Below are positions 8,896 through 32,273 of a DNA stretch of 43,011 nucleotides, one piece after another. The stretch's first letter is position 1; each line of letters begins with the position of its first letter. Location: positions 1 through 43,011 of the forward strand of contig NZ_JADEXP010000011.1 in assembly GCF_015207065.1 (NCBI RefSeq), given 5' to 3'. Position numbers and translations under genes: made by a program. The notes under the pieces are model-generated. The model had not been told where the DNA came from, did no database searches, and saw nothing but the letters and a program-made list of their open reading frames with translations. This stretch comes from Leptolyngbya cf. ectocarpi LEGE 11479 (GTDB taxonomy: Bacteria > Cyanobacteriota > Cyanobacteriia > Phormidesmidales > Phormidesmidaceae).

Positions 8896-9050
8896 AATTA
8901 GCTGATTTTTTGCAAGATCTATCACTCCAGGGTGTCAAGTTATGGGCAGATGGTGATCGTCTTCGCACGGCTGGTTCTCAGACAGTGTTGACCTCTAATG
9001 TGGTTGAACAGCTCAAGCAACACAAAAGCGCTATCTTGCAGCTGCTCCAC
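8892..9050 (+). other. TubC-type N-terminal docking domain
   Basis: MKLADFLQDLSLQGVKLWADGDRLRTAGSQTVLTSNVVEQLKQHKSAILQLL matches the G(V/I)xLWxxGDxLR...L(T)xxxxxxLxxxKxxILxLL pattern of beta-hairpin docking domains at the N termini of NRPS subunits. Confidence 0.8.
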
Positions 9051-15000: not shown

Positions 15001-18000
15001 ATCAACATCCTGCTGTTAAGCAAACGGTGGCTAATACTGTTGGAGAGTCTCTGAACCGGCAATTAGTAGCCTACGTTGTGGCTGAATCAGAGTCAGCTGC
15101 AGTTAATCTGGCTGAAGCTCACGATCCAAGTCAATTAGCTGATGTGATTCTCGATCCTGTGGAGCGGATTGAGTTCAAGCTGAGTCAGCCTGGATTAAAG
15201 AATTCTGTGCCCAGCAGTCAGGTCATTCAATTATTAAAACCTGTCTTCGATGGAGACTTAGAACAGCGCTATTTAGTCCGTCAGAGTTATCGCCAATTTG
15301 CCTCAGATTCGCGCTCTCGAGCTTCACTTGAGCAGATGCTAGTGGCGCTGACTCGTTCTGCCTCTGTTTCCAAACCATCTACACTATCTGACACAACAAC
15401 AACGTCTCTTCCCCTGTCTCTAGAAAGCTTATCCAAAACCCTTAGCAGCCTGATGGGATTTTTGATTGAGGGTGCTCCTCTACCCAAATATCTCTATCCC
15501 TCAGCCGGAAACCTTTATCCCGTTCAGCTGTATTTACGTGTTACTGATGGCGCCATTGCCGATGTTGCTGCTGGAGTCTATTATTATCATCCTCTCAACC
15601 ATACTCTAATCAAGCAAAAGGAAGGACGTATTGATTCAGCTGTATCTCTGCCGAAAAAGTTGACTAACCCTGGCGTTGAGCTATTTCTGATCGGACAACT
15701 CCCTGCGATTAAACCTCTATACGGTCGGCTAGCAGATACTTTTTGTGCTCTAGAAGCAGGATATATGCTGGAGGTACTCCGACACACTGCTACAGAGCAA
15801 AACCTCAGTTTTACGATCCCCTCCCGCTCTACTCCAGAGCTAATCCAGGCACTAGGGCTCGATCCTCAGCAGCATTTACCCTTGCTGCAGTGTGTCCTAT
15901 CGTCTCAAGACAGTTCAGCGGTCATGTCCTCTGGATTAGCTCTTAAATCATGGTTTGAGGAGTCGGACCCATTACAGCTATACCTCTACTTGAAGCCAGA
16001 TCACTGGGATGACCTAAAAGGCGGAATGTATCGGTATGATCCTGACTCACAAGCCCTGACGGCGTTATCTAGCGACGCACAGCTGAGCGGGACTATCTAC
16101 GGTGGTAATCAGCCTATTTTCGATCAAGCTAGCTTTAGTCTCTTTTTGGTAGCCCCGTCTGCAAATACACACATTCCAGAGTCCCTGGGCAGTTCTTCTC
16201 GGACAAAAGAACTGCTAAAAGCAGGTATGTGGGGACAAACATTGATGCTTGCAGCCCCCCACCATCAACTGGGGCTGTGTCCTATTGGCTATCTGCCTGA
16301 AAAAGAGATTGTCCATTCACTTCAACTAGAGCGTCATCAGCACGTTGTTCATAGTTTTTTGGGCGGTGGTATTGAGGTAACAGATCGGCAGCAGTGGCTA
16401 GCTTTTTCAACTAAACCGACGGTAGTGACGGCGGCAGAACAGCTGCGCCAGTTCTTACAAGAACGATTACCCGCTTATATGGTCCCTGCCATCTTTATGT
16501 CTATCGAGGCAATCCCTTTAACCGCTAATGGGAAAGTTAATCGCCAAGCCCTCCCTGTTCCTGTTTTAGAAACCGGTGCTCAGCTAGAGTATAGTTCCTT
16601 AAAAACGCCTACCCAGGAAATTATTGCAAATTTGATTGAATCAGTACTGAGAGTTGGTCCCATTGGCCTCCGCGATAACTTCTTTGAACTGGGTGGTGAT
16701 TCTCTGTTAGCAACCCAGCTCATTGTTAGACTACGTGCTGCCTTTGACTTAGAGATTCCTCTACGAAACTTGTTTGAATTTCCGACAGTATTTGAGCTGG
16801 AGCAGCAGATACAGCAGATACGCCAAGAAGACTTGAGGTTAACACTGCCTCCCATTACGCCAGTAGTTCCAAGAGATGGCCAACAATTACCACTATCCTG
16901 GGGACAGGAACGTTTATGTTTTTTAGATCAATTGGAGGGACCCTCAGCTACTTATAACGTACCCGCTGCGGTGCATCTATCTGGTCATCTAAACATAACT
17001 GCTCTAGAGCAGGCATTTAATTACATTGTCCAGCGCCATGAAATTTTAAGAACCCGCTATCCCATAGTAGATGGTTCACCGGTTCAAGAAGTTGTTCCAG
17101 ACATGGCTATAACTCTGATGATACAGCGTCAGGGGAATGACTTGAGCCTAGACGACTGGCAAGCTCGAATAGAGAAAACTATTCAAAAAGAGGCACGAAC
17201 CCCGTTTGACTTGGCGACAGGACCCTTGTTGCGAACTGGTCTTCAGCAATATTCTGACACAGAGTCTGTGTTACTGATTACAATGCATCATATTATTGCT
17301 GATCGCTGGTCCGTCGGTATTTTTGTTCAAGAGATGGCTGAACTCTATCGTGCTTATATCAAGGGCCGGGAGCCGTCTCTTGCTCCGATGGCTATTCAGT
17401 ATGGAGACTATGCCCTGTGGCAGCGACGCTGGTTGCAGGGAACAGTTTTGGAAAAACAGTTGGACTATTGGCTAGAACAGCTGGCTGATATGCCCACTCT
17501 CTTACAGCTACCAACGGACTATCCTCGACCTGCGGTACAGAGCTATCGAGGGGCTCATCACAGTTTTCACCTGAGTCTAGACTTGACCCGGCAACTAGAA
17601 CAGTTTAGTCAGAGGTCGGGGGTAACGTTATTTATGACTCTGTTAGCAGGATTTGGCGTATTGCTTTCTCGCTACAGTGGTCAATCTGATCTATCTATCG
17701 GTTCTCCCATCGCTAATCGAAACCAAGCTGGAATTGAACCTTTAATTGGCTATTTCTCCAATACCCTAGTACTGCGTTTACAGCCTGAAGATGACCTCAG
17801 TTTTACTCAGTTTCTACAACGGGTACGGGAAATGACTCTGGACAGCTATGTCCATCAAGATGTGCCATTTGAGCAGCTGGTAGAGGCATTACAACCGAAG
17901 CGTTCATTAAGTCACGCGCCTTTATTCCAGGTCATGTTTTTGTTGCGTACTGCTCCCCATACGGAGCCTGAAATGCCCGGGCTAATCTTAACCTCGTTAG

Positions 18001-21000
18001 CATCTGATACGCCAACCACAAAGGTTGACTTGACCCTGGCGATGACTGTAACAGACGCTGGTCTAGAATGCAGCTGGCAATACTCCACTGATTTGTTTAA
18101 GTCAGAAACAATAGAGCGGATGTCAGTTCATCTACAGCGATTGCTAGAGTCGGCGGTAACCATGCCAGACCAATCACTGTCTCGCTTGCCACTATTGCAG
18201 GATACGGAACAGTATCAGCTGTTACAGCAATGGAATGATACGGCGGTTGAGCCTTTTCAGCCGCAGTGTATTCATCAGCTCTTTACGACTCAGGTTGCTA
18301 GGGTGCCAACTGCGATCGCAGTAATTTATGAAGGGCAGCAGTTAACCTACCAAGAATTAGATCAACGATCTAATCAGGTCGCTCACTATCTTCGGGCACG
18401 GGGAGTAGAACCAGGCACACTTGTGGGTATTTGCTTGGAACGCTCCCTAGACATGGTGGTGGGGTTGTTGGGGATTCTTAAAGCGGGTGGAGCTTATGTG
18501 CCGCTTGATCCGGGCTATCCTCAAGAGCGGCTGACTTATATGCTACAGGACGCCGCAGTCTCTGTGTTACTGACTCAAGAGAGTCTGAGGAGCGTAGTGC
18601 CGGCTCAAGCGGCTTCAGTGATTTGTTTAGATGCAGACTGGCCCAAAATTGCTAAACATAGTGTGCATTCTATTGAGGGCCCAGTACAAACGGATGATTT
18701 AGCTTATGTGATCTACACCTCTGGGTCTACTGGCACGCCGAAGGGAATTATGATTTCCCATGCCTCGGTCTATAATTACACGACGAGTATTACGGCTGAG
18801 CTAGCCCTAGAAGATTGCCAGAATTTTCTACTGTCGTCCACCCTAGCTGCAGATCTGGGGAATACGGTATTGTGGCCAGCGTTATGTGGAGGCAAGTGCT
18901 TGCATTTGCTAGCTGAGGAGAAAGCGGTTGATGGAGCCCTATTTGCCAATTATCTAACCGACCATGCCATAGATGTGGTCAAAATTGTACCTACTCACTT
19001 GGCCGCTTTGCAGGCAGCCACCAACGTTCAGCATAGAGTCCTACCCCGCAAGCGTTTGATTTTGGGAGGAGACATTACGCGAGTTGCCTGGGTGCAACAG
19101 CTGCAACGGTTAGCACCTGGTTGTTGGATTGTTAATCACTATGGCCCGACAGAAACGACGGTGGGAGTGCTGACCCATCGCTTTCAGACAGAAACGGCTA
19201 CTACTGATCAAGCCAGCCTACCCATTGGCCGACCTCTGGCGAATACACAGATTTACATTTTGGACACTCATTTACAGTCTGTTCCTATCGGTGTAGCTGG
19301 GGAGCTATGCATCGGTGGAGCAGGCTTGGCCCAGGGCTATCTTAATCGCCCAGAACTAACGGCCCAAAAGTTTATTGCTAATCCCTTGATCGATTCTGGG
19401 TTAGCTCGTCTTTATAAAACAGGTGACCTGGCTCGTTACCTGCCAGATGGCACGATTGAATTTCTGGGTCGTATCGATCATCAGGTAAAGGTTCGGGGTT
19501 TTCGAATTGAACTGGGCGAAGTGGAATCGATTTTACTAGGCCATGCTGCTGTGCAACAGGCGGTTGTGGATATTTGGGAAGAGGTTCCTGGTAACAAACG
19601 TCTGATCGCCTACTGGGTGAGTCAGGATCCGACTTTAACACCTGGCAATTTGCGTAGCTGGTTACAGGCAAAACTTCCGGATCATATGGTTCCTGCTGCT
19701 TGTATTCAGTTGGAGACATTGCCTCTGACAAAGAATGGAAAAGTTGACCGACAAGCTCTGCCTACTCCTGATTTAAATAGACCAAAAGGCAACGCTTTTG
19801 CTCCTCCCCAAACAGTGCTCCAATGTCGCCTCGCAGATATCTGGAAACAGGTTCTTAGGATTGATCAGGTTGGTTTACATGATAATTTCTTTACCATTGG
19901 TGGAGACTCTATTCTCAGTATCCAAGTAGTCTCTCGTTCTAGACAGGCTGGGATTGATCTTAAGGCTAAGCAAATTTTTCAGTATCAAACGATTGCTGAA
20001 CTGGCTAGGGTCGTTGACTTCAAGCAAGGTCTAGAGATTCCACAAACACGTGCTAGTGGCCATGTTCCTCTCACGCCGATTCAGACTCGGTTTTTCGCTC
20101 AGAATTGGTCAGAGCCCCATCATTTTAATCAGGCTGTTCTGTTGTCTGTATCCCGTCATCTTAATCTGCAATACTTAGAGGCGGCTTTAGCTACTCTATT
20201 TGAGCACCACGATGCTCTGCGTCTGAGGTATATATTTGAGGAGCAAGAATGGCAGCAAATCTATGGTGATGCGCCAAGTCCATTACCGTTAGAAGTTGTT
20301 GATCTAAGCCACCATCGTAATCGAGAATATCAGTTGAAAGTACTGGCAAGCTTAGCAGACAAGTATCAAGCTAGCCTTAATTTAAATGATAGCTGTTTGA
20401 TGCAGGGGATGTTATTCCAGCTAGGAGACACGCAAGGGACTCCTGAAGCACGTCTGCTATTGATTGTCCACCATTTAGTAGTAGATGGCGTATCTTGGCG
20501 TATTTTGCTGAGTGATCTGGCGTTGGCCTATCACCAAATTGAGCAGGGACAGTCTGTGCAGCTACCGGCTAAGACCAGCTCATTCCAAATATGGTCACAA
20601 CACCTGCAGTCCTACGCCCAGTCCGATGAGTTGCGTCGTCAGATGGAACACTGGTTAAACCAGCCTTGGGCTCGGGTGCAGTCAATGCCAGTCGATTATG
20701 ACCAAAATTTGCATCTGAACCAGGTGGCTAGTCAAGTAACAGTCGATTTTACGTTAAGTCAGACGGAAACTCGTCAGCTGCTGCGTGATGTTCCAGCGGC
20801 TTACAATACTCAGATTAATGATATTTTGTTGACTGCTCTGGTTCAGTGTCTTCAGAGTTGGATGGACAATTCTGTGGTGCTGATTAATCTGGAGGGGCAT
20901 GGTCGTCAGGTTGAATTATTTGAAAACCTCGAAATTTCTCGTACGGTTGGTTGGTTCACTAGCTTGTTCCCAGTTGTTCTGCAATTGCAACCTCAAGCAG

Positions 21001-23861
21001 ATGTGGCTACTGCTATCAAATCGATTAAGGAGCAGCTGCGACAAATACCCAATGCGGGTATTGGGTATGGTATCGCGCGCTATTTGAGTGAAGATTCGGC
21101 CCTTCGTGAACAATTGACGGCGTTACCTGAAGGACAAATCAGTTTTAACTACCTGGGCCAGTTTGATGAGCAATTTGACGGAGGTAGTCAAGCAAGCATA
21201 GCCCATGGAGACGTTGCTATTCCAGCGTTGGGACAGCCAGCTTTGGAGGCGAGTGGTGGAGTACGCAGTCCTCAAGCTCCTCGCTCTCATTTGCTAGATG
21301 TCAGTGCTTTGGTGGTCAAGGAGCGGTTACAGGTGAGCTGGATCTACAGCCGCGAGATCTATGAGCAGGCTACGGTGGAGAGATTGGCCCACCGTTATCA
21401 AGAGGCTTTACAGGGGCTGATTTACCATTGTCTATCTCCAGCTACAGGAGGGTATACACCTTCGGACTTTCCCGGCACCGAGTTGAGTCAAGAGAAGTTG
21501 GATAAACTGTTAGCTACAGTAGGGCAACCTACTGTAGAGAGTATTTATCCCCTGTCTGGCACCCAACAAGGATTATTATTCCATGCTCTTTATACCCCTA
21601 ACTCTGGCGTTTACCTAACTCAAACGGTGGTGACCATTGAGGGAGCCGTGGATGTGATAGCACTAAGGCAAACATGGCAGGCGTTAATGAACCGCCATGG
21701 CTGCTTACGCACTGTCTTTGCATGGGAGACTTTAGATCAACCTCTGCAGATTGTTTGTCCAACGTTTGAATTGCCTTGGACTGAGTTAGATTGGCGCAAT
21801 TTAACCGCGAAATTGCAGGAACAGCAGTTAAATAGTTTGCTGGAGCAACAGCGAGAACAGGGCGTGGATCTTACTCAGGCTCCGGCGATTGCATTACATC
21901 TAATCCAGGTGGCCGATCAGCGGTATCACTTAGTTTGGAGCCATCACCATATTTTGATGGATGGCTGGTGTTTGCCGGTTTTGTTCCAGGAGATGCTGAC
22001 GTTTTATCAAGCCTATCGCGGTGGACACGTCTGCTCTTTAAAGCTCCCTCGGCCTTATCAGGACTATATTCAGTGGTTGCAGCGTCAAGATATGGCGGCA
22101 GCGGATACTTTCTGGAGAGAAATGTTGCAGGGAGTGGAGGCTCCTACACCGTTGCCGTTTGAGCAGTTAGGGCTGCACCATCAGTCTACTGCGGGTTTTG
22201 ATGAGCAGCAGATAGAGTTTTCTCCAGCGTTAACCCAGGCACTGCAAACGTTGGTCCAAGCTCAGGAAATGACCTTGGCTAGCTTTATTCAGGCAGTCTG
22301 GGGGCTGTTGCTCGGTCGCTATAGTGGTGACTTGGATGTGGTATTCGGGGTGACGGTTTCAGGCCGTTCTGGAGAGCTAACCGGGGTAGAAACGATGGTG
22401 GGTTTATTTATCAATACCCTGCCGTTAAGGGTGTCAATGTCCCATGATGAGAAACTGTTGCCTTGGTTACAACGATTACATCGGCGTCAGCTAGAGCTAC
22501 AGAACTATGCCTATAGTGCTTTGGCGGATGTGCAAAAGTTGAGTGATATTGAAGCGGAGATGCCGTTATTTGAGAGCATATTTGTCTTTGAGAATTACCC
22601 GGTAGAAGCAGCTGTACAGGAACAGGCAGCTGCGTTAGGACTATCGTTCACAGGGTTAAGAAATTATGAGCAGACAAGTTATCCGTTGACGTTAACGGCC
22701 ATTCCGGGAGAGCGCCTGCAGCTAACGGTAAGCTATGATACGAGCCGATTTAGTAAGGAGGCGATGGAACGGTTGCTGGGGCATTGGCAGGTGATGTTGG
22801 CTGCGATCGCAGCCAATCCTCATCAGTCTCTCGGCGAGATTCCACTGCTCACGGCGGCGGAGCGTCATCAGCTCTTAGTGCAGTGGAACGATACAACGTT
22901 TGACATTCCCCAAGACAAGTGCATCCACCAACTATTTGAGGCTCAAGCAAGGAAAACCCCCAGCGCCATTGCTGTGGCATTTGAGGATGAACAGCTTAGC
23001 TATGGCCAGCTAGAGGCTCGAGCCAATCAGCTAGCCCATCGCTTACGAGAACTTGGAGTAGAGCCTGAGGTATTAGTTGGACTTTGTGTCGAACGTTCTA
23101 TCCATCTAGTTGTGGGTATGTTAGGCATTCTCAAAGCGGGAGGTGTCTATGTGCCACTGGATTCAACCTATCCCAGTGAGCGTCTGAGCTACATGCTTAA
23201 CGACACGTCTGTGGACATTTTGCTCACTCAGCGTTCTTTAACCGAGCGCTTACCTACAAGCCAAGCCAAGATTATTTACCTGGATGATGATACCGCACTA
23301 TTAACACCATCATCTGATATTTCATCGTATTTAGATTGTTTAGCACAGCCCAGAAACTTGGCCTATGTTATCTACACGTCAGGGTCAACGGGTAAACCCA
23401 AAGGAGCCATGGTTGAACATCTCGGATGTATCAATCACTGCTATGCCAAATGGCACGATCTCTCTTTGACTCATACGGATATTATTGCCCAGACCGCTCC
23501 CATTGGTTTTGATATCTCTGTTTGGCAAACTCTGACAATGTTACTAATTGGTGGCAAGGTTGAAATTATTCAAACCGATACGGTTAGAGATCCAGAACGG
23601 CTTTTTGCAGAAGTGCAGGTGCGAGAAATATCAATTCTCCAAGTTGTACCCTCTCTGTTGAGAATGATGCTGGAAATTTGCGATCGCTCCGGTCCACCAC
23701 AGCTAAAAAATCTTCGTTGGCTAGTGGTGACTGGCGAAGCTTTTCCAACAGAATTACGTGATTGGTGGTTTACTTATTATCCCGATATTCCTCTTGTCAA
23801 TGCCTACGGTCCTGCTGAATGCTCTGATGATGTCACTCATCAATTGATTTACCATCATTAA
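8892..23861 (+). CDS. NRPS-1 (4989 aa): docking / C-A(Asn)-PCP / Cy-A(Cys)[Ox]-PCP / C-A(Asp)-PCP-E / C-A(N-terminal fragment, ends after core A5)
   Basis: The motif series is listed under the domain features. The ORF stops 13 codons after [12 protein letters not shown] (core A5), with no A6-A10 motifs and no carrier for the fourth module. Confidence 0.95.
   Translation: [4989 protein letters not shown]
9072..10470 (+). other. Condensation domain C1 (accepts the 3-hydroxyacyl chain from ACP2)
   Basis: [22 protein letters not shown] (9459-9479); YQDYVEWQ; carries a 34-aa Asn/His/Gly-rich loop insertion (9540-9641). Confidence 0.9.
9576..9620 (+). repeat. Three tandem 15-nt units inside the C1 loop insertion
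   Basis: agtaatggtcatggc / accaatggctttagc / accaatggtcataga encode [15 protein letters not shown]. The string aatggtcat recurs at 9579 and 9609, and accaatgg at 9591 and 9606. Confidence 0.8.
10540..12020 (+). other. Adenylation domain A1, predicted Asn
   Basis: Motifs [68 protein letters not shown]. Stachelhaus positions read by eye: D235 A236 T239 (GFDATIT), K278 (VKLTPA), V299 G301 (LVIGGE), E322 (NEYGPTE), V330 G331 (TETVVG), K517. This gives DATKVGEVGK, the canonical Asn code. Confidence 0.85.
12062..12278 (+). other. PCP1
   Basis: [19 protein letters not shown]; Ser codon 12165-12167. Confidence 0.9.
12345..13640 (+). other. Heterocyclization (Cy) domain
   Basis: [16 protein letters not shown] (Cy1), and DxxxxDxxS in place of HHxxxDG: [11 protein letters not shown] (12746-12772). 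Confidence 0.9.
13745..16560 (+). other. Adenylation domain A2, predicted Cys, interrupted between A8 and A9 by an oxidase insertion
   Basis: [62 protein letters not shown] (A8, about 14950-14990); after the insertion LPAYMVP (A9) and NGKVNR (A10, about 16530). The code read by eye is DLYNLSLIWK, the canonical Cys code. Confidence 0.9.
15150..16380 (+). other. FMN-dependent oxidase (Ox, nitroreductase/SagB-like) insertion for thiazoline to thiazole oxidation; unusually long
   Basis: [10 protein letters not shown], and the NRPS-Ox signature KYxYxSxGxxYPVQ present exactly as [14 protein letters not shown] (about 15485-15526). It is followed by GVYYYHP and ALEAGYML. A second partial repeat of the fold spans about 15965-16378. 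Confidence 0.85.
16599..16812 (+). other. PCP2
   Basis: [19 protein letters not shown]; Ser codon 16701-16703. Confidence 0.9.
16885..18190 (+). other. Condensation domain C3 (LCL-like)
   Basis: [18 protein letters not shown]; active-site motif [10 protein letters not shown] (17285-17311; Arg where HHxxxDG has Gly); [10 protein letters not shown]. Confidence 0.9.
18265..19765 (+). other. Adenylation domain A3, predicted Asp
   Basis: [54 protein letters not shown]. The code read by eye is DLTKIGHVGK versus canonical Asp DLTKVGHIGK (8/10 identical, with V/I swaps). Confidence 0.8.
19804..20016 (+). other. PCP3 (E-domain-partner type)
   Basis: [17 protein letters not shown]; Ser codon 19908-19910. 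GGDSI is the form usually found upstream of epimerization domains. Confidence 0.9.
20060..21440 (+). other. Epimerization (E) domain
   Basis: [26 protein letters not shown] (20469-20510); [15 protein letters not shown]. Confidence 0.9.
21535..22860 (+). other. Condensation domain C4 (DCL type)
   Basis: [16 protein letters not shown] (DCL N-terminal signature); [19 protein letters not shown]. Confidence 0.9.
22925..23858 (+). other. Adenylation domain A4, N-terminal fragment (core A1-A5 only)
   Basis: [14 protein letters not shown] (A1), [11 protein letters not shown] (A2), [16 protein letters not shown] (A3, about 23372-23405), GFDISVWQ (A4), [12 protein letters not shown] (A5, 23799-23834), then [8 protein letters not shown]-stop. 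Pocket residues read by eye: D235 I236 W239 Q278 V299 T301 A322 D330 D331. Confidence 0.9.
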
Positions 23862-23977
23862 CGTGCTCATTTTTTTGAGGCCCTACTCATAACTTGAAAA
23901 AGCATTAGCCACAGCCAAGTTTCTATCAACTATAGAGGCGCGACAATAACGCTTCTAAACAAAATCAAATATTTCTG

Positions 23978-23989
23978 TTTTCTAGAAAA
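23978..23989. promoter_or_regulatory. Perfect 12-bp palindrome TTTTCTAGAAAA upstream of the sbnA-like gene (function unknown)
   Basis: Self-complementary 12-mer in the 170-bp AT-rich spacer. A TATATT hexamer follows at 24011-24016, 16 nt before the ATG. No clear -35 element. Confidence 0.25.
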
Positions 23990-24031
23990 TTTACGTTGTA
24001 ACTCAGTTTTTATATTTGGAGCCTTGCAAAA

Positions 24032-25084
24032 ATGAAAAATATGCCTGACAGCATTACATCACGGCTCGCACCAGACAAGATTACTATTCAACATCGCCGT
24101 TGCGAACCCAGAATTTACAATAATATTACCGAGTTGATTGGCAATACTCCTATCGTTCGGTTAGGTCAAATGTTTTGTGGATACAACATATTAGCAAAAT
24201 TAGAGGGATATAATCCAATTAGCTCTATCAAAGACCGGGTTGCTTTTTATATGCTTAAACGTGCTACAGAACGAGGTTTTATTAGTTCTGACACCGTTAT
24301 TATCGAAAGTACATCAGGTAACTTTGGGCTTGGCATGGCAGCAGCCTGTCAGTTCTATGGGTTAAGGTTTATTGCTGTTGTTGATCCTAAAATTTCTAGA
24401 ATAAATTTGAGATTGTTGGAGCTACGGGGGGCTGAAATTGATATGGTGCGTGAGCCTGATGAAACAGGTAACTATTTATCACGACGCATTCAGCGTATAC
24501 AAGAACTTCGCAAAGAAATACCTGATAGCTTTTGGCCCTGTCAGTATCGTTCACCGGATAACCCTAACGCTCATTATTATGATACTGGTCAGGAAATCAT
24601 CAGCCAGCTGAATGGCCATCCTTTAGATTATTTTTTAGCTTCAGTGAGTACGACAGGCACTATATCAGGGATTAGTCGCCGTCTCAAGGAAGTTTATCCA
24701 CAGCTCCAGGTGATTGGTATTGACGAAGAGGGATCTGCATTATTTGGCGGTCAATCAGGTCCCAGATTTTTAAATGGTATGGGCGCGGGCTATCCGATTC
24801 CAGAGTTGGCAGAAGAAACTCACCGGCAACAAAGCGTCGATCAGATTATTCGCGTGAAGGCCTCTGAAGGTATTGAAGCCTGTAACCAGCTGTTGAAGTG
24901 TGAAGGAGTTATGGCAGGTGGGTCTGGCGGAGCCGTGATTGCTTCTTTGAAAAAACTGTTGCCTAGAATTCCATTAAAAAGTAATGTCCTAGTTATTTTG
25001 CCAGATCGAGGCGAACGATATTTAGATACCTTTTATAACAAACGCTGGGTTGAGGACAATATAGATAACACGAAACAGAAATAA
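24032..25084 (+). CDS. sbnA: PLP-dependent SbnA-like N-(2-amino-2-carboxyethyl)-L-glutamate synthase (cysteine-synthase fold); first step of L-2,3-diaminopropionate synthesis
   Basis: IGNTPIVRL, PLP-Lys in NPISSIKDR, ESTSGNFGLGMA, AVVDPKIS, SVSTTGTISGISRRLKE, ILPDRGERYLD. Long colinear matches to S. aureus SbnA as I recall it (VVDPKIS, DYF.A.VSTTG, ILPDRG.RYLD). GGAG lies 10 nt upstream of the ATG. Confidence 0.88.
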   Translation: MKNMPDSITSRLAPDKITIQHRRCEPRIYNNITELIGNTPIVRLGQMFCGYNILAKLEGYNPISSIKDRVAFYMLKRATERGFISSDTVIIESTSGNFGLGMAAACQFYGLRFIAVVDPKISRINLRLLELRGAEIDMVREPDETGNYLSRRIQRIQELRKEIPDSFWPCQYRSPDNPNAHYYDTGQEIISQLNGHPLDYFLASVSTTGTISGISRRLKEVYPQLQVIGIDEEGSALFGGQSGPRFLNGMGAGYPIPELAEETHRQQSVDQIIRVKASEGIEACNQLLKCEGVMAGGSGGAVIASLKKLLPRIPLKSNVLVILPDRGERYLDTFYNKRWVEDNIDNTKQK

Positions 25085-25159
25085 TGATAAAGGGAGTTTA
25101 TTAGCTTAGTTATATAGCCTTACGTTGTTATCTCAAGTCTAACTATATTAGGTTTTTCT

Positions 25160-26167
25160 ATGGAACGGATTCTCTACCTTAGCCAATCTGATATTAAGCA
25201 ATTAGGCGGTGCATTTTCTCCTCTTTATGTTGAGGCCGTTAGTCAGGCCTTAATTTTACATGCCCAGCAAGATGTTGTTCAACCTTTAAAGCCATATTTG
25301 CGCTGGCGCGGGGACGCTGGACACATTGCTGATCGGATCATTGCTATGCCAGCTTATATCGGTGGCCGTGATCCGGTGGCAGGACTGAAGTGGATCGGTA
25401 GTAAACACGATAATCCAACTAGTCGAGGACTGGAGCGGGCCAGTGCCCTGATCACGCTGAACGACCCTGAATCCCATTATCCCATTGCTGTGATGGAAGG
25501 TAGTCTGGTGAGTGGTATGCGGACAGCGGCGGTGAGTGCGATCGCAACCCGCCATCTAGCCAAGAGCGATTTTAGCCACGTTGCCTGTGTTGGCTGTGGA
25601 GTCATTGGCCGGATGCAGTTATCCACATTGCTAGAACAGTTTCCGTCAATTACAACTATCCACTTATTTGACTTAAATAGCTTAGCGGCTAAACGCTTAG
25701 CAGAGCGTCTCCAACAGCAGTTCCCAAAAACCGAGTTCAAAATCGCAGCGAATGCCGAAGCGGCTGTAGGTAAAGGTGAGGTGGTCATTTTCTGCACCGT
25801 CACTGATAAACCCTACGTTCCCTATAGCTGGTTGCAACCCGGTACGTTTGTCAGTAATGTTTCCATCATGGACTTGCACAAGGAAGTCTTTCTTAAGGCA
25901 GATAAGGTAGTTGTAGACGATTGGGAACAGTCTAACCGCCAAAAGAAGATTATCAATCAGTTAGTACTTGAAGGAAGCTTCTCTCGCGAGCAGCTCCATG
26001 CAGAATTAGGCGAAATTTTGACCCAGCGACGGCCAGGACGAGAATCCAGTGACGAAATTATTGTCCTGAATCCTATGGGCATAGCCATTGAAGATATCGC
26101 CTGCGCCCAAGCCATCTACCAAAAGGCGATCGCAGCTGGTATTGGCACTTGGCTGCCCCTATACTAG
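25160..26167 (+). CDS. sbnB: SbnB-like NAD-dependent ornithine-cyclodeaminase-family dehydrogenase; second step of L-2,3-diaminopropionate synthesis
   Basis: VQPLKPYLR, GHIADRIIAMPAYIGG, GLKWIGSKHDNP, YPIAVMEGSLVSGMRTAAVS, GCGVIG, KADKVVVDDWEQ, INQLVLEG, NPMGIAIEDI. Near-colinear with S. aureus SbnB as I recall it. Confidence 0.9.
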   Translation: MERILYLSQSDIKQLGGAFSPLYVEAVSQALILHAQQDVVQPLKPYLRWRGDAGHIADRIIAMPAYIGGRDPVAGLKWIGSKHDNPTSRGLERASALITLNDPESHYPIAVMEGSLVSGMRTAAVSAIATRHLAKSDFSHVACVGCGVIGRMQLSTLLEQFPSITTIHLFDLNSLAAKRLAERLQQQFPKTEFKIAANAEAAVGKGEVVIFCTVTDKPYVPYSWLQPGTFVSNVSIMDLHKEVFLKADKVVVDDWEQSNRQKKIINQLVLEGSFSREQLHAELGEILTQRRPGRESSDEIIVLNPMGIAIEDIACAQAIYQKAIAAGIGTWLPLY

Positions 26168-26251
26168 TCCTCTCCTACATGATTTTTTCCTACCTAACCG
26201 CTAACTCACAAATGCTTTCTGTTCATCATAAATAATTGCCAAGCCAATTCC

Positions 26252-26835
26252 ATGAAATTTAGAACTGTTCCTGTTGGACGACCGGTTATCAACACCCAGA
26301 TCTACATCCTTGATACCTATCTCAATCTTGTTCCTGTGGGTATCGAAGGCGAACTATATGTGGCGGGTGTAGGTGTGGGTCGAGGTTATCTCAATCGTTC
26401 AGGGCTAACAGATGAACGATTTATCCCCAATCCATTTTCGACTATAAATGATTTAAACCATAGTCGTCTTTACAAGACGGGCGATCGAGCCCGCTATCTG
26501 CCTAACGGCACCATTGAATTTCTCGGGCGTATCGATCACCAGGTCAAGGTGCGAGGATTTCGTATTGAACTGGGCGAAATCGAAGCCGCTTTATTAAGTC
26601 ATTCCCATGTGCAGCAAGCTGTTGTTATTGATCGCGAAGACAATCTTGGTGACAAACGACTGGTTGCCTATATGGTGTGTGAAGCTCCCTTGCCTGCTTG
26701 CTCCACAAATTGGTCCGAATTTCTGAAAGCGCAGCTGCCAAGTCATATGATTCCCAGTGCTTTTGTCGAACTAGAGGCTTTGCCTCTAACCCCTAACGGC
26801 AAACTTGATCGACGGGCACTGCCAATGCCAGACAC
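26252..26835 (+). other. Adenylation domain A4, C-terminal fragment (core A6-A10)
   Basis: GELYVAGVGVGRGYLNR (A6), YKTGDRARYLPNG (A7), GRIDHQVKVRGFRIELGEIE (A8), LPSHMIPSAF (A9), NGKLDRRAL (A10, supplies K517). Confidence 0.9.
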
Positions 26836-29800
26836 TGACTTGAGAGAGGCTGCTAATTTTGTTGCTCCTCGCACACCAACAGAAGAAATTACCGCCGATA
26901 TTTTTGCAGCTGTATTGGGACTAGAGACTATCGGTATTCACAGCAATTTCTTTGAATTTGGCGGTCATTCTCTCTTAGCAACGCAAGCAATATCAAAGTT
27001 GCGCGGGGCATTTCAGGTGGAACTACCCTTGAGAGATTTGTTTGAAGCACCGACAGTGGCTGAGTTGGATCAGCGTATTCATCAAGCCCTGACCTGTGAG
27101 CAATCGCAACATAAGCTTGTTCCCATTACAGCTATTTCCCGAGAGAAGAGCTTTCCATTTCCACTTAGCTGGTCTCAAGAAAGACTGTGGTTTCTAAATC
27201 AGTTAGAAGGAGCCAGCAGGGCTTACAACATTCCCATAGTGCTGAAAGTTGAGGGCTCTCTTAATCTAGATGCGTTGGCATGGGCAATGCAGAGCGTAGC
27301 TGAACGTCACGAGATTCTGCGCACTACCTTTCACAATCCAGATGGGCAGCCGATACAGATCGTTTCTCCAACTGCTGCATGCTCAATTCCATTGGAAGAC
27401 TTCACAACAGTTCCAATGGAACAGCAACAGGATAGGGTGCACCAACGCATTCATCAAGCAGCAACAACTCCCTTTAATCTGACCGAGGGGCCTCTGTTGC
27501 GTATAAGCCTGTTGCATCTATTCGAAAAATCCTACGTTTTACTATTAGTTTTTCACCACAGCATCTTTGATGCCTGGTCAGGTGAGGTGTTTGTTCGAGA
27601 ATTAACGACATTTTATCAAGTCTATCAGTCACAGCCAGCGAAGGTTTCTCCCTTTCCCCCCCTGACTCATCAGTATGGTGACTATGCCTACTGGCAACGC
27701 CAGCATCTGAACGTTGTCTTAGAGCCTCAACTCAAGTACTGGCAACAGCATCTGTCGGGCACTTTGCCAGCTTTAAATTTCCCCACAGACTATCCTCAGT
27801 CAGCCCAACCCGAATATCAAGGAGCCCGATGTTCTCGACAGCTATCAGTCTCATTAAGCACGGCACTGAAAACCTTATGTCGAGAAGAAGACGTCACGCT
27901 ATTTATGGCCCTACTAGCCGCACTAAACCTGTTGCTAGCTCGCCATACCGATCAGACAGACATCATCATAGGAGCGCCAATTGCTGGACGCCAACATCCA
28001 GGCACTGAAAACTTGATTGGTTTCTTTGTCAATCTATTACCCCTACGTATTGATTTATCAGAGATCATTACATTTCGAGAGTTACTGGCTCATGTGCGTG
28101 ACGTAACGTTGGCAGCTTACAGCAATCAGGATGTCCCCTTTGAAAAGCTGGTGGAGGTTTTACAACCAGAACGTGCTCTAAATCGTCATCCTGTTTTTGA
28201 TGTCATGCTAAATTTTCTCCAGACTTCCATGGCCCCTCCCAAGGTGAGTGGTTTGGAGCTAACTCCTTTAGAAATGCCGGATATGGCTTCTAAATTTTGG
28301 CTGACGTTACATGTAAGAGAACAAGAAAATTGTCTTCAGTTAGAACTAGCATATCGCCAATCACTGTTTTCAGCAGAGCGGATGGAAATTTTTCTAGCTC
28401 AGTTTGAAACACTGTTAGAGCAGATTGTATCGATGCCTAATCAGGCCGTACATCGGTATTCACTTCTGGTTGCTAACCCTCCGTGGAAACTGCCAGATCC
28501 GAGTGTTCCCTTGGTCGAATCCCCGTTTGAGCCCGTTTCAGCTTTAGTCATGGCTCAAGTGCGAAAGCACCCTGACAAGACTGCCATTACTCAGGCTGGA
28601 CAGTGCTGGACGTACCAAGATCTAATGGCTGAGGCGACTCGCGTTGCCGATCGACTGATCGACACTGGCGCACAGTCAGGCGATGTGGTGGCTGTATATG
28701 GAGAGCGAAACTTTGAATTCATTTCCAGTATCCTTGGCATATTCCTGAGTGGAACTGTACTGCTTACTCTAGATTCCAATTTACCAGAACAACGGCTGCG
28801 ACTGATGGTAGAGCAGGCTAAGGTTCGCTATTTGGTGATACTAGATAATGATCTGCCCAGACAATGGGTTCCCGATCCGGTTCACCTGTTAATGGAGAAG
28901 CCCACAGTAAAATCTCAGCAGACCGCTGTCAAGTCTGCGGCTATGGTTTCTGTGCAGATGTCTTCTTTACCTCAGGTTAAGGGCGATGATCCAGCCTATA
29001 TATTCTTCACCTCGGGTAGTACGGGTATTCCCAAAGGAGTGCTAGGTCTACATAAGGGTATTTCTCACTTCGTCAATTGGCAGCGAGATACCTTTGAGGT
29101 TGGCAGTGAGGATCGGGTTGCTCAGCTGATCCGTTTATCTTTTGATGCACTACTGCGAGATATTTTCTTACCGTTGACAAGCGGTGCGACTTTATGTCTG
29201 CCGACTGAGGATGAGTTGAGTCGCGATCGCATCTTACATTGGCTAGAACAAGAGAATATTTCTATTCTTCACACAGTACCTACAGTCGCCCAGTTCTGGA
29301 TAGCCAATGCTCCGAATATCATCAAGTTACCCGCTCTGCGACTCGCCTTTTTCTCCGGCGAGCCCCTAACCGCAAATTTCATTAGCCAATGGCGGCAAAC
29401 GTTTACCCCAGCCCATAATCTTATTAATCTTTATGGTGCTACAGAGACCACCATGGTTAAAACCTACTATCTAGTGCCTCAGCATCTACGTCCAGGCAGC
29501 CAGCCAGCAGGTTGGCCTCTGCCCCAAACCCAAACTTGGGTATTACGTGATAACGATCAACCCTGTGGCATTGGAGAAGTTGGCCAAATTGTCGTACGCA
29601 CACCGTTTCGTACCTTGGGATATATCAATGCAGATTCTGGTCAACCACCTTGCTTTAGACCAAATCCTTTCCGCTACGATCCTGATGACTTAGTCTACGA
29701 CACAGGCGATCGAGGACGATTTTTACCAGATGGCAGCCTGGAGGTATTAGGTCGTTTAGATAGTCAACTCAAAATCCGAGGTGTGCGCATTCAACCTGGA

Positions 29801-30445
29801 GAAATTGAGGCAATTCTGAATCAAGATTCAGACATTGATCAAAGTGTAGTCGTTGCCCGTCCTGATGCTAAAGGAGAGAATGTCCTGATAGCTTATCTGG
29901 TTCCTCGCCATCAGACTGACATCGATCGGCACCAGCTGCACAACTCTCTATTTCAACGCTTGCCTGTCTATTTAATTCCTACTACCTATGTAATTTTGGA
30001 CACACTTCCTCTAACACCCAGTGGAAAGGTTGATCGTAGCGCTCTCCCGATTCCGGACCTCAGTATCAGTACTCTCTCTACTCAGATTCCCCCACGTACG
30101 CCAACAGAGATTAGTTTGGTTGAAATTGTTGCTAACATTCTCAGGCTTGACACTGTAGGTATTTACGATAACTTCTTTGCTCTAGGGGGACATTCTTTGC
30201 AAGCGAGTCAGGTGATTGCCTATATCCAGCAAACCTTTGGAATAAAGCTACCCCTGCGCTCACTTTTTGAAGAGCCGACAGTTGCAGCGCTTGCCAAAAT
30301 GATAGACATCTATCAAGAAAAAGGAAACACAAATGCGGCATCAACTACGCCAATTCCTAAACGGTCACGACGACGAGTAAAACGCTCAGCCGAAGGAACG
30401 CTGATTATACCGGCTCAGCTCAAGCAAGAGCTACAGGATAATTGA
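26252..30445 (+). CDS. NRPS-2 (1397 aa): A(C-terminal fragment, core A6-A10)-PCP / C-A(DARH-type)-PCP
   Basis: Starts MKFRTVPVGRPVINTQIYILD, the segment that in intact A domains follows about 20 residues after YGPTE. The in-frame region upstream is closed by TAA at 26195-26197 and has no earlier ATG. No N-terminal docking or C domain. Confidence 0.92.
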   Translation: MKFRTVPVGRPVINTQIYILDTYLNLVPVGIEGELYVAGVGVGRGYLNRSGLTDERFIPNPFSTINDLNHSRLYKTGDRARYLPNGTIEFLGRIDHQVKVRGFRIELGEIEAALLSHSHVQQAVVIDREDNLGDKRLVAYMVCEAPLPACSTNWSEFLKAQLPSHMIPSAFVELEALPLTPNGKLDRRALPMPDTDLREAANFVAPRTPTEEITADIFAAVLGLETIGIHSNFFEFGGHSLLATQAISKLRGAFQVELPLRDLFEAPTVAELDQRIHQALTCEQSQHKLVPITAISREKSFPFPLSWSQERLWFLNQLEGASRAYNIPIVLKVEGSLNLDALAWAMQSVAERHEILRTTFHNPDGQPIQIVSPTAACSIPLEDFTTVPMEQQQDRVHQRIHQAATTPFNLTEGPLLRISLLHLFEKSYVLLLVFHHSIFDAWSGEVFVRELTTFYQVYQSQPAKVSPFPPLTHQYGDYAYWQRQHLNVVLEPQLKYWQQHLSGTLPALNFPTDYPQSAQPEYQGARCSRQLSVSLSTALKTLCREEDVTLFMALLAALNLLLARHTDQTDIIIGAPIAGRQHPGTENLIGFFVNLLPLRIDLSEIITFRELLAHVRDVTLAAYSNQDVPFEKLVEVLQPERALNRHPVFDVMLNFLQTSMAPPKVSGLELTPLEMPDMASKFWLTLHVREQENCLQLELAYRQSLFSAERMEIFLAQFETLLEQIVSMPNQAVHRYSLLVANPPWKLPDPSVPLVESPFEPVSALVMAQVRKHPDKTAITQAGQCWTYQDLMAEATRVADRLIDTGAQSGDVVAVYGERNFEFISSILGIFLSGTVLLTLDSNLPEQRLRLMVEQAKVRYLVILDNDLPRQWVPDPVHLLMEKPTVKSQQTAVKSAAMVSVQMSSLPQVKGDDPAYIFFTSGSTGIPKGVLGLHKGISHFVNWQRDTFEVGSEDRVAQLIRLSFDALLRDIFLPLTSGATLCLPTEDELSRDRILHWLEQENISILHTVPTVAQFWIANAPNIIKLPALRLAFFSGEPLTANFISQWRQTFTPAHNLINLYGATETTMVKTYYLVPQHLRPGSQPAGWPLPQTQTWVLRDNDQPCGIGEVGQIVVRTPFRTLGYINADSGQPPCFRPNPFRYDPDDLVYDTGDRGRFLPDGSLEVLGRLDSQLKIRGVRIQPGEIEAILNQDSDIDQSVVVARPDAKGENVLIAYLVPRHQTDIDRHQLHNSLFQRLPVYLIPTTYVILDTLPLTPSGKVDRSALPIPDLSISTLSTQIPPRTPTEISLVEIVANILRLDTVGIYDNFFALGGHSLQASQVIAYIQQTFGIKLPLRSLFEEPTVAALAKMIDIYQEKGNTNAASTTPIPKRSRRRVKRSAEGTLIIPAQLKQELQDN
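26867..27080 (+). other. PCP4
   Basis: FFEFGGHSLLATQAISKLR; Ser codon 26969-26971. Confidence 0.9.
27155..28465 (+). other. Condensation domain C5 (LCL-like)
   Basis: FPLSWSQERLWFLNQLEG; VFHHSIFDAWS (27554-27580; Ala where HHxxxDG has Gly); HQYGDYAYWQ. Confidence 0.9.
28545..30053 (+). other. Adenylation domain A5, divergent; DARH-type pocket (candidate side-chain-carboxyl activation of Asp, McyB2-like)
   Basis: PAYIFFTSGSTGIPKG; SFDALLRD; ILHTVPT; AFFSGEP; NLYGATETTMV; YDTGD; KIRGVRIQPGEIE; PSGKVDR. The code read by eye is DARHFSLMVK. Confidence 0.6.
30092..30306 (+). other. PCP5
   Basis: FFALGGHSLQASQVIAYIQ; Ser codon 30194-30196. Confidence 0.9.
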
Positions 30446-30499: not shown

Positions 30500-31231
30500 T
30501 TGAGTTATTTCCACTCCCTATCAAGACTGGATTTCCTAGGCATTCTGGGGGGTATGGGTCCGTTAGCCTCTGCTGAATTTCTCAAGACTATTTATGAATA
30601 CAGTCTGACGGGGGAGTCTGAGCAGGAATCACCCAGGGTTGTAGTATATTCTGATCCCACATTACCTGATAGAACTCAAATACTTTTGAGTGGCGAAAGT
30701 GAACCATTACTGAGTAAGCTTATCGAAGCATTACATCAGCTGAGTGAACTCAAAGCAAGAAGAATAATCATCTGTTGCGTTACGTCTCACTATCTACTTG
30801 CCAAACTTCCTGCTGACTTGCAAGAACGCATTATTTGTCTGGTAGACATTATTCTCAGTAATATTATTGAGCAAAAAAAAAAGCATCTTTTACTCTGTAC
30901 AACAGGTACCCGTCGGCTCAAGATATTTTCACAGCATCCCCTATGGGGCCAGGCTAAGGAGTACATTATACTGCCAGATGATTCGGATCAACAGACTGTA
31001 CATAACATGATATACCAAATTAAAACTAACGGTATATCAATACCGGTCGCGTATCAGCATGCAGAGTGTTTAGCCATGAAATACAATGCTGATTCGGTCA
31101 TTGCTGGCTGTACAGAACTACATTTATTAAGTAAGTTTTCTATAAATGGGGGTGAGTTTCAAGCAAAACAAGATATTCAGATTACCTTTTTCGATCCTTT
31201 AGTGCATATTGCTCAAAGCCTTGCGTCGTGA
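30500..31231 (+). CDS. Asp/Glu/hydantoin-racemase-family protein, aspartate-racemase-like (McyF-like)
   Basis: LGILGGMGPLASAEFLKTIYE at the N terminus. Two catalytic-Cys contexts: IICCVTSHYLL and IAGCTELHLL (GCTE). About 240 aa, typical of PLP-independent two-Cys racemases. Confidence 0.8.
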   Translation: MSYFHSLSRLDFLGILGGMGPLASAEFLKTIYEYSLTGESEQESPRVVVYSDPTLPDRTQILLSGESEPLLSKLIEALHQLSELKARRIIICCVTSHYLLAKLPADLQERIICLVDIILSNIIEQKKKHLLLCTTGTRRLKIFSQHPLWGQAKEYIILPDDSDQQTVHNMIYQIKTNGISIPVAYQHAECLAMKYNADSVIAGCTELHLLSKFSINGGEFQAKQDIQITFFDPLVHIAQSLAS

Positions 31232-31241
31232 CCTCTAACAA

Positions 31242-32273
31242 ATGAAAAAATCTAAGCCATCTATAGCCTCCATCAATGTTGAAAAAGTTAAGTTGGGATA
31301 TCTACAAGTAGATCAACAGCCCCCTTTAGTCATAGAGCCGACTAGTGACGATCTGGATTTAGTATCCTGGGCCAATGATAACCAGGGGCTTATAGAAAGC
31401 CAGCTTGACACCTATGGTGCTCTTCTATTTCGAGGCTTTAAGCTACCTTCTCCAACCACTATGTTAGAACAATTCGCACTGACAAATTGTTCAGATCTAT
31501 TTGACGACAATGGCGAGCATCCCCGTGAAGCCTTAGGTAGTAAAGTTTATACTCCTGTTTTTTATCCCAACGACAAGAAGATTTTCTGGCACAACGAGAA
31601 CTCGTTTAATCGGCGTTCGCCCATGAGAATTTGGTTTTGCTGTCTACAACCATCAGAGCAAGGAGGAGAGACTCCTATTGTTGATAGCCGTGAAGTCTAT
31701 AACCTAATCGATCCTGAAATTAGATCAGAATTTGAGCAAAAACAAATAAAGTATATCCGCAATTACAATCCGCAACTAGGACTTTCTTGGCAAAAGATTT
31801 TTCAAACAACTGATAAAAAAGAAGTTGAAGAAAAATGCAAAGATAATCTAATGTCGTTTGAATGGAAAGAAGGGGATCGTCTGCAGACAACCTGCATTCG
31901 TCCATCGGTGGTGAAACATCCAAGGACAGGTGAAAAGTCGTGGTTTAATCAGGCACAACATTGGCATTTATACTTTCTAGATCCAATTACCCGTGAGGTT
32001 TTTTCGTCGTCTTTTTCTGAAGATGAGCTACCACGTAACTGTTGCTATGGTGATGGATCGCCTATTCCAGATGCTGTTATGGAAGCTGTCGAAAAGGTAT
32101 ATCAGAAGCTGGAGATCAGTTTCTCCTGGCAGAAAGAAGATATCTTGATGCTAGATAATATCCTTATGGCCCACGCTCGTAATCCGTTTGTTGGAGAAAG
32201 AAAGCTCTTAGTGACGATGGGGAAAACGTTTCAATATGATCATTGTACTACTGCTCAAGACAATGCGCCTTAA
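31242..32273 (+). CDS. TauD/TfdA / clavaminate-synthase-like Fe(II)/2-oxoglutarate oxygenase; candidate Asp/Asn beta-hydroxylase
   Basis: YGALLFRGF; HxE metal motif in FWHNENSF; distal His/Arg in LMAHARNPF. About 340 aa and positioned inside an NRPS operon, as for SyrP/AsnO-type amino-acid beta-hydroxylases. Confidence 0.75.
   Translation: MKKSKPSIASINVEKVKLGYLQVDQQPPLVIEPTSDDLDLVSWANDNQGLIESQLDTYGALLFRGFKLPSPTTMLEQFALTNCSDLFDDNGEHPREALGSKVYTPVFYPNDKKIFWHNENSFNRRSPMRIWFCCLQPSEQGGETPIVDSREVYNLIDPEIRSEFEQKQIKYIRNYNPQLGLSWQKIFQTTDKKEVEEKCKDNLMSFEWKEGDRLQTTCIRPSVVKHPRTGEKSWFNQAQHWHLYFLDPITREVFSSSFSEDELPRNCCYGDGSPIPDAVMEAVEKVYQKLEISFSWQKEDILMLDNILMAHARNPFVGERKLLVTMGKTFQYDHCTTAQDNAP

Follow-up and report, generated by a model that had tools for sequence, protein, structure and literature searches.

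The 43,011-nucleotide stretch of Leptolyngbya cf. ectocarpi LEGE 11479 analyzed in this study (contig NZ_JADEXP010000011.1, positions 1-43,011, forward strand; referred to as the window) harbors an adenylation (A) domain of a nonribosomal peptide synthetase (NRPS), termed A4, which is encoded as two pieces on the consecutive proteins NRPS-A and NRPS-B. Two genes, sbnA and sbnB, are located in the gap between the pieces. Judging from the sequence and its genomic context, we assign a probability of roughly 60% to the interpretation that this A domain is functional, being rebuilt in trans from its two pieces and activating L-2,3-diaminopropionate (L-Dap). Loci used for comparison are numbered L001 onward. 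The features of the split domain and of the gap are as follows (window coordinates):

21537..22877, + strand: condensation (C) domain of the last NRPS-A module (PF00668, detected on 500-aa slices of NRPS-A)
22857..23861, + strand: A-domain piece 1, representing the C-terminus of NRPS-A, with the C-A linker and core motifs A1-A5; stop codon TAA at 23859-23861
23511..23525, + strand: code residues D235 (23511-13), I236 (23514-16) and W239 (23523-25) in GFDISVWQ, motif A4
23640..23642, + strand: code residue Q278 in ILQVVPS
23724..23732, + strand: code residues V299 (23724-26) and T301 (23730-32) in LVVTGEA
23802..23831, + strand: code residues A322 (23802-04), D330 (23826-28) and D331 (23829-31) in motif A5 and the next strand
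23862..24031, + strand: spacer of 170 nt between piece 1 and sbnA, aligning with the corresponding spacer of L004
24032-25084, + strand: sbnA-like gene, pyridoxal phosphate (PLP) enzyme (PF00291)
25160-26167, + strand: sbnB-like gene, dehydrogenase of the ornithine cyclodeaminase (OCD) family (PF02423)
26168..26251, + strand: spacer of 84 nt between sbnB and the NRPS-B gene
26252..26838, + strand: A-domain piece 2, representing the N-terminus of NRPS-B, with an ATG start and core motifs A6-A10
26801..26803, + strand: code residue K517 in NGKLDR, motif A10, on NRPS-B
26897..27067, + strand: carrier (T) domain that would be loaded by the split A domain (PF00550, NRPS-B residues 216-272; FGGHSLL)

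Anatomy of the split adenylation domain

Piece 1 covers positions 1-328 of the 384 positions of the AMP-binding profile PF00501 and contains the P-loop, Asp235, which binds the alpha-amine, and the entire pocket for the side chain with Asp330 and Asp331. NRPS-A terminates 13 residues past motif A5 (NAYGPAE), and NRPS-B starts just ahead of motif A6. Piece 2 comprises a part of the core made up mostly of beta-strands, along with the hinge, the whole small subdomain and Lys517, and is directly followed by the first carrier domain of NRPS-B, the phosphopantetheine-carrying serine of which is encoded at 26969-26971. The domain does not form a continuous polypeptide, since the reading frame stops at 23859-23861 and restarts at 26252 with two genes in between. 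Together, the two pieces contain all ten core motifs, intact and in order (A1-A5 on piece 1, A6-A10 on piece 2), as well as Asp235 and Lys517. When fused, they are colinear with LgrA A2, GrsA and other intact A domains, with zero gap at the junction; the gap-free, colinear alignment to LgrA A2 indicates that nothing was lost or duplicated at the break.

In a MAFFT alignment to GrsA-PheA, the specificity code of the fused domain reads DIWQVTADDK, with nine residues located on NRPS-A and the tenth on NRPS-B, exactly as had been deduced in an earlier note on this DNA. The GrsA-PheA sequence was validated as a reference in that it yields DAWTIAAICK at the ten canonical positions 235-517. The same residues fall at the same code positions in HMMER alignments to PvdL and SulM A3 chains, the Asp-Asp pair at 330/331 being retained in the alignments to GrsA, PvdL and the 9n1u chain alike. 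The statement of the earlier note that the invariant lysine has to be supplied in trans was also correct, albeit understated, as all of the motifs A6-A10 reside on the second protein.

The fused domain was modeled with AlphaFold2. A single-sequence model was unusable (predicted local distance difference test (pLDDT) 38.6), and a model based on an alignment of 23 sequences was used instead, with a pLDDT of 87.8 and a predicted template modeling (TM) score of 0.87. In Foldseek comparisons, the model achieved TM scores of up to 0.91 against solved NRPS A domains and 0.92 (target-normalized) against SulM A3, with a 2.1 Å superposition. The junction, between fused residues 337 and 338, is predicted to lie in a loop connecting strands 330-334 and 346-348. 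In the model, piece 1 is of the alpha/beta type; in piece 2, residues 338-442 are mostly beta but include one short helix, and the small subdomain comes after them. According to the predicted structure, the cut falls between two parts of the core, an alpha/beta part that bears the pocket and a part consisting mostly of beta-strands.

The following sequence of events is proposed for this module. The two pieces would associate non-covalently, probably via pairing of strands 330-334 and 346-348, thereby restoring the A domain. The rebuilt domain would adenylate L-Dap, its beta-amine being held by Asp330 and Asp331 as in SulM A3, and would load it onto the carrier domain of NRPS-B, whereupon the condensation domain at 21537..22877 would join the upstream peptide to the loaded amino acid. 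Domain profiles did not detect a docking domain at the NRPS-A/NRPS-B junction, the N-terminus of NRPS-A featuring a TubC-type one; for this reason, association of the pieces may double as the docking contact between both proteins. Physical reassembly, activity and the use of Dap over L-2,4-diaminobutyrate (Dab) are what we infer from these data.

Nested precursor genes and substrate of the split domain

The earlier note had also placed Dap genes in the gap, and both of them indeed pass the respective equivalog cut-offs: sbnB clearly (TIGR03944, 403.2 bits versus a cut-off of 326.9) and sbnA marginally (TIGR03945, 351.3 bits versus 349.95). As known from staphyloferrin B, SbnA and SbnB catalyze the first and the second step of L-Dap synthesis from O-phospho-L-serine and L-glutamate. 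In the window, their genes are adjacent, co-oriented (+ strand) and 75 nt apart. Within the 170-nt spacer, the stretch right ahead of the sbnA start is more conserved in comparison with L004, a related split locus introduced below. The numbers of promoter-like and terminator-like sites in the gap were no higher than in shuffled sequences, a repeat search of the gap did not find flanking direct or inverted repeats marking a mobile element, and Rfam families were absent from the window. Considering these results and the spacer lengths of 170, 75 and 84 nt, sbnA, sbnB and both NRPS pieces likely form a single operon.

With respect to its sequence, the Asp-Asp pocket at positions 330/331 is of a known diamino-acid kind ('mode 3'). 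In the crystal structures of SulM A3 with L-Dap (9N1U and 9N1V), the beta-amine is 2.8 and 2.6 Å away from the Asp residues of code positions 8 and 9, and the Glu at position 4 was termed possibly redundant by the authors, who encountered Ile at position 2 in all SulM A3 homologues found and Gln at position 4 in several of them (PMC12042044). D330 and D331 of the window align with Asp2443 and Asp2444 of SulM in the HMMER alignment to the 9n1u chain, and I236, W239 and Q278 match the mode 3 pattern, in which position 2 is Val/Ile, position 3 is Trp and position 4 is Glu/Gln. Thus, the suggestion made beforehand that two acidic residues at 330/331 would be suited to a side chain that is short and cationic agrees with the SulM A3/L-Dap structure. 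Further features shared with SulM A3 are Asp235, Lys517 and Ala at position 7. In contrast to the split domain, SulM A3 is one continuous domain with the code DVWEMNADD and reads TEASDD instead of ECSDD after motif A5.

The second point of reference is the Dab-activating domain of PvdL, for which the code DIWELTADDK had been given in the earlier note. This code was verified on the PDB chains 9lcq and 9up2, which display FDISVWQ, VLESVPS and MLPTGEA and thus DIWELTADD(K); the reported identity of 8/10 to the window code is likewise correct. The title of 9up2 is 'PvdL-E2-C3-A3-PCP3', and an epimerization (E) domain precedes the A domain in the PvdL chains (E = 1e-99 with the E domain of the window). 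Since PvdL is known to have one E domain, following the Tyr module, the A domain of 9lcq and 9up2 is the Dab domain. A PDB query with the FAAL domain of the window was uninformative for the identity of the PvdL construct, PvdL not being among the matches listed, and the query with the E domain was decisive. Among solved structures, PvdL is the best match for the pocket region and shares the motif A5 region with the window; it differs in being continuous and in having E278 and L299 where the window has Q and V. Moreover, an aminotransferase gene of this kind was not found among the main ORFs of the window, which carries sbnAB instead. The Dab for PvdL is made by the aminotransferase PvdH, and class-III aminotransferases are the usual Dab route in general. 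Hence, this A-domain clade comprises a proven Dab domain, that of PvdL, and SulM A3, to which the clade is related in sequence, is a proven Dap domain.

Furthermore, 80 metagenome loci of the 'ECSDD' A-domain clade were fetched by means of the patterns F[DN]IS[VI]WQ and N[AT]YG[PA][TA]ECS. SbnA/B-like genes were present in 17 of them within the available flanks. Label-free clustering of all open reading frames (ORFs) not belonging to megasynthases was carried out for 82 loci, two spurious top groups (NRPS fragments and antisense ORFs) being set aside. The top neighbor families were PALP/SbnA-like (17 loci) and OCD/SbnB-like (15 loci) proteins, followed, among families with a Pfam match, by TauD (6), acyl-CoA dehydrogenase (6), HAD (5) and thioesterase (5). 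A recurring class-III aminotransferase family was not found among the clade neighbors in the 82 loci, nor was a Dab supply gene of the PvdH/EctB-like class-III type among the main ORFs of the window.

A domains exhibiting exactly the PvdL code were encountered in three sbnAB-linked loci (L015, L018 and L096). As DIWELTADD occurs in the proven Dab domain of PvdL as well as in sbnAB-linked loci, the two substrates cannot be told apart by the ten-residue code. In two more remote clade members, L015 (Chamaesiphon polymorphus, PVWO01000351.1, 1-2469; DIWELTADD) and L016, an SbnB-like gene lies directly beside the clade A domain; the DIWELTADD domains of L015 (1-2469) and L018 (10001-13430) are located directly after or before SbnA/SbnB-like genes. 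Predictors relying on the code would be likely to assign Dab to both domains, though their context says Dap. In a neighbor-joining tree of the pocket region (approximately 146 residues and therefore weakly informative), the branches nearest to the cyanobacterial clade are mostly sbnAB-linked (L092, L044, L090, L015, L018 and L022), and PvdL sits elsewhere. One further candidate for a Dab domain, P0149 from Pseudomonas syringae, was rejected on account of a Ser-type code read by eye. Full-text literature searches with the strings DIWQVTADDK, DIWELTADDK and variants (10-mers and 7-8-mers) returned no match.

In summary of the genetic context, sbnAB is nested in the split domain, was inherited together with it and represents the top recurrent neighbor of the clade, while a Dab gene was not found by the searches described. 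For these reasons L-Dap is quite probably the substrate, as the earlier note had supposed, with the support coming from gene context and the code leaving the matter undecided.

Conservation of the split and competing explanations

The same order of piece 1, sbnA, sbnB and piece 2 was found in L004 (ENA ERZ26696392), which originates from another sample. Positions 8-3973 of L004 and 22865-26838 of the window constitute one colinear block with 83% nucleotide identity, spacers included. Directly past motif A10, the identity falls to approximately 65%, and hence the shared block ends at about 26838. The encoded proteins are 86% (SbnA) and 93% (SbnB) identical at the amino acid level, and piece 1 of L004 ends with DDVTHHLIYH before its stop codon. 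By a genome scan, the same split was also detected in L011, which belongs to a metagenome-assembled genome (MAG) of Symploca sp. SIO2C1. Here, piece 2 follows approximately 220 nt after piece 1, and the gap retains the last approximately 110 nt of sbnB. Because this 3' remnant is still in place, the nested arrangement must be older than the divergence of the three lineages, sbnA and most of sbnB having been deleted later in L011.

The three loci terminate piece 1 at slightly different codons, namely after IYHH in the window, IYH in L004 and IYHSGYP in L011, and share a common restart sequence, which argues against a sequencing slip as the cause of the stop codon. At the beginning of piece 2, the three loci agree in all of the first 20 nt (ATGAAATTTAGAACTGTTCC) in spite of their divergence, as expected for a real start site. 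Regarding the surroundings, the upstream C-plus-A stretch of L011 is approximately 48% identical to its counterpart in the window, compared to 75% for the A piece alone; the region 3' of the split domain is of the T-E-C type in L011, and its flanks are non-orthologous to those of the window. What the window, L004 and L011 (9455-11265) have in common is the A domain alone, i.e., A1-A10 with sbnAB or its remnant inside. This pattern suggests that the whole split domain acts as one recombination unit.

Unsplit relatives are represented by L010 (Symploca; code DIWQVTADD) and L013 (Calothrix rhizosoleniae; code DIWQSTADD). The Symploca sp. SIO2C1 MAG accordingly possesses an unsplit (L010, 9455-11032) and a split (L011, 9455-11265) copy. 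Between these two, the N pieces are 85% and the C pieces 76% identical, with the divergence beginning right after DDVTHH, in the split loop, a pattern that points to piece 1 as a possible unit of subdomain exchange with the split site as its boundary. Two sets of candidates were discarded: P0131, a 320-aa A fragment considered as a further split, was dropped because its contig is a long-read one full of fragmented NRPS ORFs, and P0002 and P0003, considered as unsplit orthologues, were rejected since both represent the next module, the L004 counterpart being split. A search of a representative library with piece 2 plus the T domain for proteins starting at A6 was swamped by multi-module NRPSs and was uninformative. 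The closest other cyanobacterial SbnB homologues (71-75% amino acid identity; L005-L009) are located outside of NRPS clusters and have no bearing on the split. In L005-L008 (Oculatellaceae and Aphanizomenon), they form a conserved trio of PALP, OCD and Haem_oxygenase_2 genes, and in L009 the SbnB homologue is accompanied by two ATP-grasp genes and a methyltransferase gene. These contexts may point to further roles of Dap in cyanobacteria that are as yet undescribed.

Between the window and L004, two split loci, the ratio of nonsynonymous to synonymous substitution rates (dN/dS) was 0.13 for piece 1 (dS 0.71) and 0.14 for piece 2 (dS 0.65), with values of 0.086 for sbnA and 0.054 for sbnB. Compared to L011, both halves gave a dN/dS of 0.08 each, at saturated dS. 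These values show purifying selection on both halves and hence retention of the split form under selection.

Several observations weigh against a rebuilt, L-Dap-activating domain, and some of them could be explained differently. The code shares eight of its ten positions with the Dab domain of PvdL and six, K517 included, with SulM A3, and the pocket region scores 115 bits against PvdL versus 90 bits against SulM A3; furthermore, sbnA clears its cut-off by 1.4 bits only. Going by the code and the pocket score, the split domain could be functional but activate Dab or be promiscuous for short diamino acids, the SbnA/SbnB product being used elsewhere. We regard this as unlikely, since the PvdL code, found unchanged in sbnAB-linked loci, does not discriminate, a Dab-type aminotransferase was not found when the main ORFs of the window (43 kb) were examined, and sbnAB resides inside this very domain and was inherited with it while the flanks differ. 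In addition, the only other unassigned A domain of the cluster (DARHFSLMVK) has Arg and His in its pocket, as would suit an acidic substrate in preference to a cationic one.

Other adverse points concern the break itself, which might be a disabling lesion, with the sbnAB insertion having killed the module and the cluster being inactive, decaying or skipping it. The split is rare, loci with a partner piece numbering three and all 80 metagenome relatives being unsplit. In L011, sbnA and most of sbnB are gone. In L004, the T and C region following the split domain (4100-5260) contains at least five frame changes in 1.2 kb; the remainder of the 30-kb contig reads open, and these frameshifts may reflect a local long-read error or recent decay at a recombination junction. 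Two further loci, L012 (209-10465) and L001 (147-1529), both with the code DIWQSTADD, stop in the same loop (ending in LYPVYYKQQ and LYPVYYSEVM), and their partner pieces were not found nearby. The gene following in L012 (10809-18863) encodes an unrelated, toxin-complex-like protein of 2,684 aa with VRP1 and eight hemopexin repeats, and L001 amounts to a short relic whose C domain is truncated; yet a dN/dS of 0.115 was calculated for this pair. Both look like remnants or rearrangements, indicating that such clusters also decay or rearrange. A dead module is nevertheless improbable in the window, given the dN/dS of 0.13-0.14 on both halves at a dS of about 0.7 between two split loci and of 0.08 versus L011, the intact catalytic motifs, the nucleotide-level conservation of the piece 2 start region in three loci and a split older than the divergence of three lineages. 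An assembly or sequencing artefact (chimeric contig or false stop), or a rejoining of the halves by an intron or a split intein, is highly improbable. The window and L004 come from assemblies of uncertain quality, and cyanobacteria are known to carry split inteins; yet the same architecture with differing stop positions occurs in three independent assemblies, with genes and spacers colinear over 4 kb. Moreover, the absence of Rfam families from the window excludes known group I or II introns, and the abutting fragments lack any additional residues that could make up intein halves. Overall, a functional domain rebuilt in trans and specific for L-Dap remains the preferred explanation.

Relation to known systems and gene cluster context

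The closest precedent is Crz1/Crz2 from corallorazine biosynthesis, where the next ORF carries A9-A10, following an embedded methyltransferase, and activity is restored only upon mixing of the two proteins, described by its authors as the first case in which experiments showed an A domain to be split but functional (PMC11342130). In the searchable literature, the term 'split adenylation domain' was found in this paper (2024) alone, and Crz1/Crz2 was the only experimentally shown split A domain found. Both systems distribute one A domain over two ORFs, with Lys517 and motif A10 on the second protein. However, the Crz1/Crz2 break lies between A8 and A9, at the boundary of the core and the small subdomain, whereas the break described here interrupts the large core subdomain itself, between motifs A5 and A6. 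Likewise, the Crz ORFs are adjacent and involve a methyltransferase, whereas here two precursor genes (2.4 kb) occupy the gap and a methyltransferase is lacking. Interrupted A domains differ as well, as they stay one polypeptide.

With regard to the nested genes, the window resembles other SbnA/SbnB pairs associated with NRPS genes, such as sbnAB of staphyloferrin B, in possessing an adjacent PLP enzyme and OCD-family dehydrogenase; VioB/VioK of viomycin is another pair of this type. Such pairs are usually neighbors of the synthetase genes, L015, L016 and L018 being examples, whereas here the pair is located within the coding region of the very A domain by which its product is most likely used. 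Acore segments are the usual exchange units in NRPS recombination, as reported by Baunach et al. 2021 (PMC8097286). The A domain as a recombination unit (83% nucleotide identity between the window and L004 versus approximately 65% in the flanks) is in line with this; in the reported Acore exchanges, however, one reading frame is kept and the small subdomain usually remains native, whereas the block found here comprises A1-A10 plus two genes. The architecture, i.e., a split within the core, with nested precursor genes and retained under selection, is new, while the pocket type was already known.

Going one step further, the split A domain and the nested sbnAB genes might represent a self-contained 'make-and-activate' cassette for L-Dap that was moved between cyanobacterial assembly lines as a unit, with the A5/A6 loop serving as tolerated split site and docking interface. 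This proposal is tentative, and we consider the odds to be somewhat against it. A domains are the gatekeepers of NRPSs and the main target of their engineering. If the split works, the pocket-bearing alpha/beta part on the one hand and the beta-rich part with the small subdomain on the other are able to fold independently and to come together again. In that case, the A5/A6 loop would offer a new candidate cut point in the design of split or modular NRPSs, and a catalytic domain restored from two pieces could stand in for a docking domain between two megasynthases. If the cassette proposal holds, this cut point would be one tested by evolution, and precursor-supply genes would be hitch-hiking inside the domain that uses their product. 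Furthermore, the Asp-Asp 'mode 3' pocket, reported so far for sulfazecin alone, is extended to a large environmental clade, in which about one-fifth of the loci feature SbnA/B-like genes in the fetched flanks. [quoted passage not shown]

Based on its ORFs and domain profiles, the window represents a lipopeptide gene cluster of cyanobacterial type on the + strand. Besides sbnA and sbnB, it encodes the following:

1930-8895, + strand: FAAL/PKS protein (FAAL-ACP-KS-AT-KR-ACP)
8892-23861, + strand: NRPS-A, 4,989 aa (TubC-type docking domain, C-A1-T, Cy-A2-Ox-T, C-A3-T-E, C-A4 (truncated))
26252-30445, + strand: NRPS-B, 1,397 aa (remainder of A4, T, C-A5-T)
30500-31231, + strand: racemase of the Asp/Glu-racemase family
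31242-32273, + strand: dioxygenase of the TauD family
32366-36340, + strand: NRPS-C (C-A6-T-TE)
36484-37854, + strand: major facilitator superfamily (MFS) transporter

Alignment to GrsA-PheA yielded the codes DATKVGEVCK for domains A1 and A6, DLYNLSLI.. for A2, DLTKIGHVVK for A3 and DARHFSLMVK for A5, the latter including Arg239 and His278. According to published codes, A1 and A6 are Asn-like, A2 Cys-like and A3 Asp-like. The Arg and His in the A5 pocket would suit an acidic, not a cationic, side chain. Since a gene of the Asp/Glu-racemase family is located 3' of the NRPS-B gene and an E domain is lacking, our guess for the A5 substrate is a D-configured acidic residue, perhaps supplied by the downstream racemase. 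Read by eye, P0002 (L004) has the same unusual code as A5 (window 28550-30050), and P0003 (Symploca) has one almost identical to it.

The TauD-family dioxygenase gene (31242-32273) and the racemase gene (30500-31231) are located between those for NRPS-B and NRPS-C. In combination with the Asp-/Asn-like A domains, the FAAL-PKS start and the Cy-Ox (thiazole) module, they suggest a beta-hydroxy-Asp/Asn lipopeptide siderophore of the cyanochelin kind as the product of the cluster, for which a match to a described compound was not established. Adjoining the MFS exporter gene, an 819-aa ORF (37946-40405, + strand) lacks an NCBIfam match and shows a weak chlorophyllase/PETase-like alpha/beta-hydrolase match at residues ~260-410; its product may be an acyl hydrolase or esterase for the lipopeptide.

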